Shown here: positions 17,600 to 18,950 of the stretch, in pieces
Layout of the letters: every line of letters begins with the position of its first letter
How positions within the stretch are numbered: the stretch's first letter is position 1
Assembly (NCBI RefSeq): GCF_963853765.1
Contig: NC_088853.1
Span: forward strand, 52,948,001-53,012,000
Length of the DNA: 64,000 bases
Reading direction: 5' to 3'
Source: Magallana gigas
Taxonomy: Eukaryota
Notes under the pieces: model-generated
What the model saw: the letters and a program-made list of their open reading frames with translations, nothing else
Told to the model about the DNA's origin: nothing
The model's database searches: none
Program-made: the position numbers and the translations under genes

Positions 17600-18950
17600 A
17601 TAAAATGCAAGCCTAGTGCAGAGGAAATATCACAATTTGATATCAGGAATATAGACAAAAATGCTAAAACAGGATATATCTTAGAGGTAACAATTGAGTA
17701 TCCAAGTCATTTGCATGATTTGCATAATGATCTCCCATTAGCACCAGAGTCGTTATCTATCATAATGGAAGATCTCTCTCCTTACTGCCATGAACTGTAT
17801 AAAAGTCTTCATAAAGGGAAAACTGAGGGGGAAATTTCGAAAAAACTCGTTCCTACACTTCGAACAAAGGAAAAATACGTTGTTCACTATAGAAACTTAC
17901 AATTCTACCTTCAGCAAGGACTCATTCTGACAAAAATACATCGTGTTATAAGCTTTGAGCAGGAGGCTTGGCTTAAGCCATACATCGAATATAACACTAA
18001 AATGAGACAGCAGGCACAGAATGACTTTGACATCTCCCTTTATAAATCATACAACAATATCGTTTTCGGGTAAGTGTTTGAGAAAATTATCATGAAAATA
18101 TAGATGGTTGATAAAATAAAACTAGAGTACCATTGTAATATATGTTTTTTTTAATGTCATTTCAGAAAAACCATGGAAAATATAAGAAACAGATTAAATT
18201 TTAACCTAGTTCATGCAAAAAAAACCCTTCAAAAGCTGGTTAGTAAACCGAGTTTTGAGAGCTTTACTATCTTCAATAAAGATCTCGTTGGAGTAAAAAA
18301 CAAAAAGGTCAAACTTTTGCTTAACAAACCCATCTACACACTATGGTGGGAATGCAAAGTTGCTGATGACAGATACAGATTCCCTGTTTTACAGGTATGT
18401 CATACTCGGACTTATTGGTGCATTTTGTTATTTATTAAGAGTCAATATTGTTTTATACATCTTATTTTATTTCTTGTTTTGTAGGTTTGAAGTTAAAGAT
18501 ATGTATAAAGAGATGAGTAAACATATTAATTTGTTCGATACATCAAACTATCCTAGAGATCATTTTCTGTTTAGTGAAATAAACAAGAAGGTTGTTGGTA
18601 AGATGAAAGATGAAACTGCATCTCAGCCAGTAATGGGATGTGTTGAATTACGACCAAAAATGTATTCATTCATTGTTTACAATGAGGAAAAAACCCAAGT
18701 GAAAAAAGCAAAGGGAATCGCCAAATCTGTTGTTAACAAAGAATTAGCATATCAAAATTACGTGGACTGTCTATTAAACTGTAAATTAGAAAGACATACA
18801 ATGAACTCTATACGGAGTGAAAATCATAATCTGTTTCTTAAAGCTATCAACAAAATTTCCCTGTCTTCCTTTGACGATAAACGATGGTGGTTGAAGCCTA
18901 ATGGTATTGAAGGTTATTCATATGGACACTTTAAAATCCCTGATAATTAA
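17600..18950 (+). pseudogene. polB: Polinton/adintovirus-type protein-primed family B DNA polymerase, C-terminal part, with two introns
   Basis: Motifs [74 protein letters not shown] and LSSFDDKR. Introns 18070-18165 (GTAAGT..TTTCAG) and 18395-18484 (GTATGT..TAG). A deletion with frameshift lies near 18337. Confidence 0.9.

Follow-up and report, generated by a model that had tools for sequence, protein, structure and literature searches.

Polinton/Maverick elements of vertebrates are reported to be without introns (Barreat and Katzourakis 2021, PMC8097293), and the core genes of nematode Mavericks are called intronless, with introns located in host-derived cargo (Widen et al., bioRxiv 10.1101/2022.07.12.499685). 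The introners of dinoflagellate eupolintoviral elements are described as young, repeated transposons that were mostly gained after integration, about 25% of them in coding regions (PMC12166617). In the Drosophila P element, splicing of IVS3 is regulated, and its retention withholds the transposase (PMC9762592). The Polinton DNA polymerase, pPolB, carries N-terminal terminal-protein and vOTU domains (PMC11071308). No report of spliceosomal introns in the pPolB of an animal Polinton was found in the literature searched, where Repbase entries and supplements could already annotate them, and the accessible portions of Jeong 2023, Starrett 2021, PMC12220804, PMC5718144, PMC10294476, PMC11244446, and 10.64898/2026.07.28.741278 make no mention of such introns.

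The window analyzed here is a stretch of 64,000 nucleotides from Magallana gigas (NC_088853.1, positions 52,948,001 to 53,012,000). It contains a truncated pPolB gene interrupted by GT-AG inserts that, on the evidence of the DNA, are very likely spliceosomal introns of a mobile Polinton lineage. The relevant features are as follows (positions in the window).

6703..16938: later insertion upstream of the relic and outside the Polinton, with broken Helitron ORFs at 11.3-16.5 kb on the minus strand
17615..18069, plus strand: 5'-truncated remnant of pPolB exon 1, ending inside the Gly codon of motif B (NNIVFG), assigned by its match to P0137 from residue 872 onward
18070..18165, plus strand: putative intron 1 (I1), 96 nt, GT-AG (GTAAGT...CAG), phase 2, with in-frame stops, splitting the Gly codon between NNIVF and KTMEN
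18166..18394, plus strand: exon 2, from KTMEN to DTDSLFY, with a 68-nt deletion and frameshift near 18340, based on anchor distances and translations
18395..18484, plus strand: putative intron 2 (I2), 90 nt, GT-AG (GTATGT...TAG), phase 2, in the Arg codon after DSLFY, just past the catalytic DTDS
18485..18950, plus strand: last pPolB exon and stop codon, with an empty third insert site (I3) after KMKDET; subfamilies A and B (see below) have no insert there

The pPolB copy in the window is a 5'-truncated dead relic. It lacks the first ∼870 of 1275 residues when compared with the full-length relative P0137, and its KPIY-to-DTDS spacing is 46 nt versus 114 nt in relatives, so that 68 nt are gone and the frame is shifted, in agreement with the initial annotation, which had described a dead copy with about 20 codons lost and a frameshift. 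The exon 1 remnant is 84% identical to subfamily B, 76% to C, and 66% to D; the motif labels A, B, and C are those that we take to apply to pPolB. Both inserts had been marked in the initial annotation, and their positions, GT-AG ends, and AT-rich interiors were all confirmed (GC content of 0.23 for I1 and 0.26 for I2, versus 0.32-0.36 in the exons). Pyrimidines make up 75% of the last 20 nt of I1 and 80% of those of I2, and GT..AG ends are expected by composition alone with probabilities of ∼0.004 and ∼0.003, respectively. A simple pattern search revealed no branch-point-like motif in the window I2. The open frame of this I2 is incidental: a sister copy has an I2 of 89 nt, and those of other subfamilies are 80-83 nt long with stops.

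As seen at positions 1-6702 and 16939-19338 of the window, all four subfamily A copies have an upstream flank with Mutator-like remnants in common and are therefore duplicates of one truncated relic; the copy at C1:58.07 and the window have more than 25 kb in common. The upstream insertion at 6703..16938 has Helitron_like_N and PIF1 matches. Capture of the pPolB fragment by a Helitron was ruled out because this stretch is missing from the sister copies at C1:62.68 and 56.08 Mb. Elsewhere in the window, 166-nt tandem repeat arrays occupy 29398-30671 and 63197-63994 and presumably represent typical oyster satellite DNA, and a gag-like ORF with CCHC zinc knuckles lies at 57787-58509 on the minus strand.

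A protein search of the genome gave 38 matches, of which 30 had loci that correspond to 28 distinct places; the remaining eight were left out. Of the 28 pPolB places, 13, which fall into five subfamilies (A-E), have an insert in at least one of three sites that are fixed in position and phase; the other 15 had no insert at I1-I3, 12 of these spanning all three sites. The sites lie in motif B (I1), after DTDS (I2), and after KDE (I3). Subfamilies A (four copies, including that in the window) and B (two copies) have I1 and I2; C (two copies) has I1, I2, and I3, the last in phase 1 at the Gly after KDET; D (two copies) has I1 without I2, and I3 in the one copy that retains the region; and E (three copies) has I3 only. 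The intron positions thus compared show that the inserts are not private to the window copy, the same sites and phases being used in diverged subfamilies. I1 occurred at the same site and phase with GT-AG ends and a length of 91-100 nt in all ten A-D copies, and I2 was GT-AG and 80-90 nt long in the seven measurable A-C copies, the eighth being split by a later insertion. The I3 inserts of C, D, and E were 90-151 nt long and GT-AG in five of six cases, and one E copy has a 135-nt insert at this site without a canonical donor. Insert lengths cover all three classes modulo 3, and for all ten subfamily-level inserts the GT and AG ends leave flanking codons that match intron-less relatives exactly. 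The interiors were near-random between subfamilies (z ≤4.2, mostly <3, versus 13-22 within subfamilies in a shuffle comparison). The GT-AG ends, the pyrimidine tract, and the conserved position and phase are those by which U2 spliceosomal introns would be recognized. Insert presence differs by subfamily, and both gain and loss would therefore have occurred.

The exons behind the inserts are under strong purifying selection. Single exons were compared without joining, and four comparisons were skipped because of a frameshift in one B copy. For the exons downstream of I1, comparisons between subfamilies A-D yielded pN values of 0.04-0.24 versus pS values of 0.45-1.15, with omega of 0.004-0.14 where dS was finite. 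In every subfamily from A to D the frame is stopped or shifted by I1 or I2, and with synonymous divergence at saturation, such constraint behind frame-breaking inserts is difficult to account for if they stayed in the mRNA. We infer from this selection our main argument for insert removal from the mRNA.

Six B, C, and D copies sit in complete Polintons with integrase, predicted double-jelly-roll capsid, protease, ATPase, and terminal inverted repeats (TIRs). Their gene order, on one strand, is integrase, two small ORFs, capsid, protease, ATPase, two ORFs, and pPolB. The elements are 15.9-22.5 kb long, all six have TIRs ending AGTAGT..ACTACT, and five of the six are flanked by perfect target duplications of 6 bp that differ from element to element. 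Within each subfamily, the longest blocks of the two members show ∼99% identity and the flanks are unrelated, which indicates that the elements already carried the inserts when they recently integrated at new sites. The suggestion of an intronised lineage in the initial annotation is supported by these data, the inserts being common to diverged, recently mobile subfamilies. Matches to the rve integrase had E values of 4e-10 (C), 7e-10 (B), and 1e-12 (D), and the integrase is lacking in the window relic; the protease is Peptidase_C5-like (5e-5 in D and 2e-3 in C), and the packaging ATPase is A32-like (Pox_A32, 2e-3, under the curated cut-off). Wherever they are unbroken, the integrase, capsid, and protease genes each consist of one ORF. 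A double-jelly-roll fold for the capsid is supported by its predicted model (pLDDT 44.7, low confidence), which matches Sputnik and iridovirus capsids (E 2e-6, TM ∼0.2); a feature search scored 0.98 to clusters that carry PF21738 on 14-30% of their members, with recognition just below threshold, and the capsid sequence had no match in the PDB. No polymerase Pfam match was obtained for the window fragments or for P0137, and a PDB sequence search returned zinc fingers as its only match and no polymerase. Homologues of pPolB at 42-57% identity bear PF03175 and "DNA-directed DNA polymerase" names, and the protein is classed as a predicted polymerase of the family B, protein-primed type. Subfamily E has a similar gene run that is degraded, and no TIRs were found for E or for the A relics. 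All structural features examined identify the intron-bearing elements as Polintons, and the description of Polinton core genes as intronless, drawn from vertebrate and nematode elements, does not hold for them, as pPolB is interrupted at I1-I3.

Several other genes accompany these elements. A small gene in C and D elements (L041:1368-1754, plus strand; L038:1807-2196, plus strand; L025:3661-4050, minus strand) encodes a U11-48K-type CHHC zinc finger (E 2e-6 and 2e-10), a finger type that we take to be that of the Gtsf1/Asterix piRNA factors and of a minor-spliceosome protein; it is possibly counter-silencing or RNA-binding cargo. The right arm of A-D elements carries a small cysteine-rich gene (L041:2387-2878, plus strand; L037:6943-7377, plus strand; L028:4111-4509, minus strand; L159:4364-4735, plus strand) that has a hydrophobic N-terminus and no Pfam match and that, in an A copy, showed sense-strand transcription at low depth. 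Fragments of a pPolB of different type (L033:4313-5570, plus strand) lie just outside the B element at C1:75.76 Mb. In the window itself, the ATPase at 61179-61829, which had been proposed as a possible partner of the intron-bearing polymerases, is A32-like and only 33-35% identical to the ATPases of the intron-bearing elements; it belongs to another Polinton-like family, and the proposed tie was not upheld. A 113-nt GT-AG insert that splits a RING-like cysteine motif (60784-60896) adjoins it.

RNA was examined in 8 of 24 listed runs, using ∼1% of the raw reads of each, with the window copy and a sister A copy, both truncated relics, as targets. Raw reads on the A copies of pPolB were sense-strand at a depth of 0-6, and no GT-AG joint was detected in the eight runs at this depth on the dead A copies. 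I1 or I2 is retained in four contigs that may be of DNA origin (X5 record 16, X8 record 22, X2 record 2, and X4 record 9), two joints detected downstream of pPolB had non-splice ends, and a loose end at the I1 acceptor had no placement in the genome. The search for spliced transcripts that the initial annotation had called for thus gave no junction; the coverage of these truncated A relics was too shallow for this result to refute splicing.

The closest named proteins to the window pPolB are from Pinctada, Ostrea, and Saccostrea, and oyster metatranscriptomes contain the stretch. In a tree of the exon 1 segment, I1 carriers and Pinctada proteins formed one clade (100/99). A longer, quick tree placed E as sister of the I1 clade (SH-aLRT 96, no bootstrap), and the exon 1 tree, the shorter of the two, did not settle where E lies relative to this clade. 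The simplest order of gain would be I3 first (E, D, and C), then I1 (D, C, B, A, and the pearl-oyster relatives), and then I2 (C, B, and A), with I3 probably lost exactly in A and B; alternatively, E may have gained I3 in parallel. Database proteins called as ORFs in nine 90% clusters stop precisely at the I1 Gly, and at least one of these is subfamily B itself. One such protein, P0138, falls in the same cluster as a Pinctada gene model that continues across the I1 site, which suggests that I1 is present in pearl-oyster elements; among the clade proteins retrieved, no ORF-called one spans I1 in joined form. Inserts at I1-I3 were found in none of 83 outside loci (the best 80 of 328 metagenome relatives plus three viral contigs), 70 of which span all three sites. 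One metagenome contig encodes a distant pPolB with two GT-AG inserts (L099:6740-7075 and ∼7540-7660, one of them 342 nt) at sites other than I1-I3 and is an independent intron-bearing lineage. Among 143 further 50%-cluster representatives, 15 of 42 premature ends fell within 18 residues of motif B (p ∼3e-7, proteins alone). The distant pPolB ORFs broken in motif B include P0396, P0399, P0408, P0409, P0417-P0419, P0432, P0472, P0478, P0488, P0511, and P0518; the motif-B-broken ORFs have F/Y/I/L-rich tails like intron read-through, and two resemble plain frameshifts. This excess may be a lead toward repeated intron gain at motif B.

We consider it highly probable that host splicing clears the polymerase mRNA of one to three short introns, which the element transmits as DNA. 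Host RNA polymerase II would transcribe the element in the nucleus, the host spliceosome would excise the introns from the pPolB mRNA to give a complete polymerase, and the element would replicate and, by means of its integrase, re-integrate as DNA, so that the introns would be inherited. Because the inserts occupy fixed places in pPolB and new insertions carry them, host splicing is likely needed for element copying. Most likely, the introns do not form a switch but are passengers that are tolerated and spliced constitutively. An unlikely alternative is that real introns act as a regulatory switch, with retention yielding a ∼1000-residue N-terminal product (terminal protein and exonuclease) without the region from DTDS onward, by analogy with IVS3 of the P element. 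The insert sites correspond to positions 1025, 1124, and 1170 of 1275 in a reference pPolB, all within the last fifth of the gene and leaving the first ∼1000 codons uninterrupted, as such a switch would have it; the N-terminal terminal protein of Polinton pPolB (PMC11071308), the sense-strand RNA and unspliced contigs, and the premature ends at motif B would also suit it. However, no conserved element was found in the intron interiors, E has only I3, which A and B lost, and the motif-B excess is known from protein sequences alone, scans of viral contigs for the DNA of two proteins that end there having found nothing. An extension of this idea, which we hold to be improbable, would make the catalytic end of pPolB, above all motif B, a recurrent hotspot of intron gain across animals and a splicing switch that times Polinton replication; the hotspot is proposed because retention there would yield a terminal-protein-bearing, polymerase-dead product.

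The fixed sites and diverged interiors of the inserts, the constrained exons, and the mobile, complete elements make it very likely that the inserts are spliceosomal introns, and neither MITE footprints nor parts of a domesticated gene. Footprints of MITEs or introners that landed after integration and were never spliced are very improbable: introners do enter dinoflagellate eupolintoviral elements, mostly after integration (PMC12166617), both ends of I2 read AG|GT in A and C, which could be a short target duplication, and spliced reads were not seen, but I1 and I2 DNA matched only the four sister A copies in the genome (for I2, five pieces at four places, in a search that may skip common words), with no introner- or MITE-type repetition of either elsewhere, I1, I2, and I3 differ from one another in sequence, and the inserts hold the identical base position in diverged subfamilies and were present when elements moved to new sites. 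The shared positions and the selection on downstream exons largely refute this reading, and an ancient introner origin followed by normal splicing would fit the intron interpretation. There is similarly little chance that the polymerase is made as separate polypeptides or by recoded read-through, with the inserts as spacers. An ATG occurs within three codons after I1, and I1 starts with a stop in most subfamilies, but the breaks lie inside conserved motifs, the I1 of one C copy is in frame with no stop, and the exact restoration of flanking codons speaks against spacers. Domesticated transposon genes typically gain introns, and a domesticated polymerase had been the second suggestion of the initial annotation; a host-owned gene of this kind is nevertheless scarcely credible and was ruled out for these copies, as the intron-bearing genes are multicopy, lie at unrelated sites within elements bounded by TIRs and target duplications, and are accompanied by capsid and integrase genes, and the window copy is broken.

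With an intron in the essential replicase while the element is still mobile, the lineage would need host nuclear transcription and splicing, and this would speak against a life like that of virophages in a cytoplasmic giant-virus factory. The inserts would provide a short series of intron gains that can be dated, together with a single exact loss, in a DNA element without an RNA replication step. ORF callers cut these polymerases at motif B, as in the nine clusters above, and screens for intronless ORFs would call such elements dead. The splice junctions would offer a direct RNA assay for the time and place of animal Polinton activity.

The oyster elements resemble vertebrate Mavericks (PMC8097293) in their pPolB, rve integrase, ATPase, protease, and capsid, in their (AGT)2//(ACT)2 ends and 6-bp duplications, and in size; the vertebrate elements are described as intron-free, whereas introns are predicted here in pPolB. 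Like nematode Mavericks (10.1101/2022.07.12.499685), they are mobile Polintons that would carry spliceosomal introns, in this case deduced from DNA, but the introns lie in the core replicase and not in cargo. As in the dinoflagellate eupolintoviral elements (PMC12166617), introns occur within Polinton-like elements; unlike the introners reported there, the oyster inserts are old, non-repeated, located at fixed sites, and inherited through transposition. With IVS3 of the P element (PMC9762592) they share the situation of a DNA transposon whose key enzyme would depend on host splicing, although regulated splicing is known, of the two, only for the P element, and the element and enzyme are unrelated. 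The Polinton architecture itself is known, and the distinguishing feature of these elements is the very likely presence of inherited introns in the core replicase.
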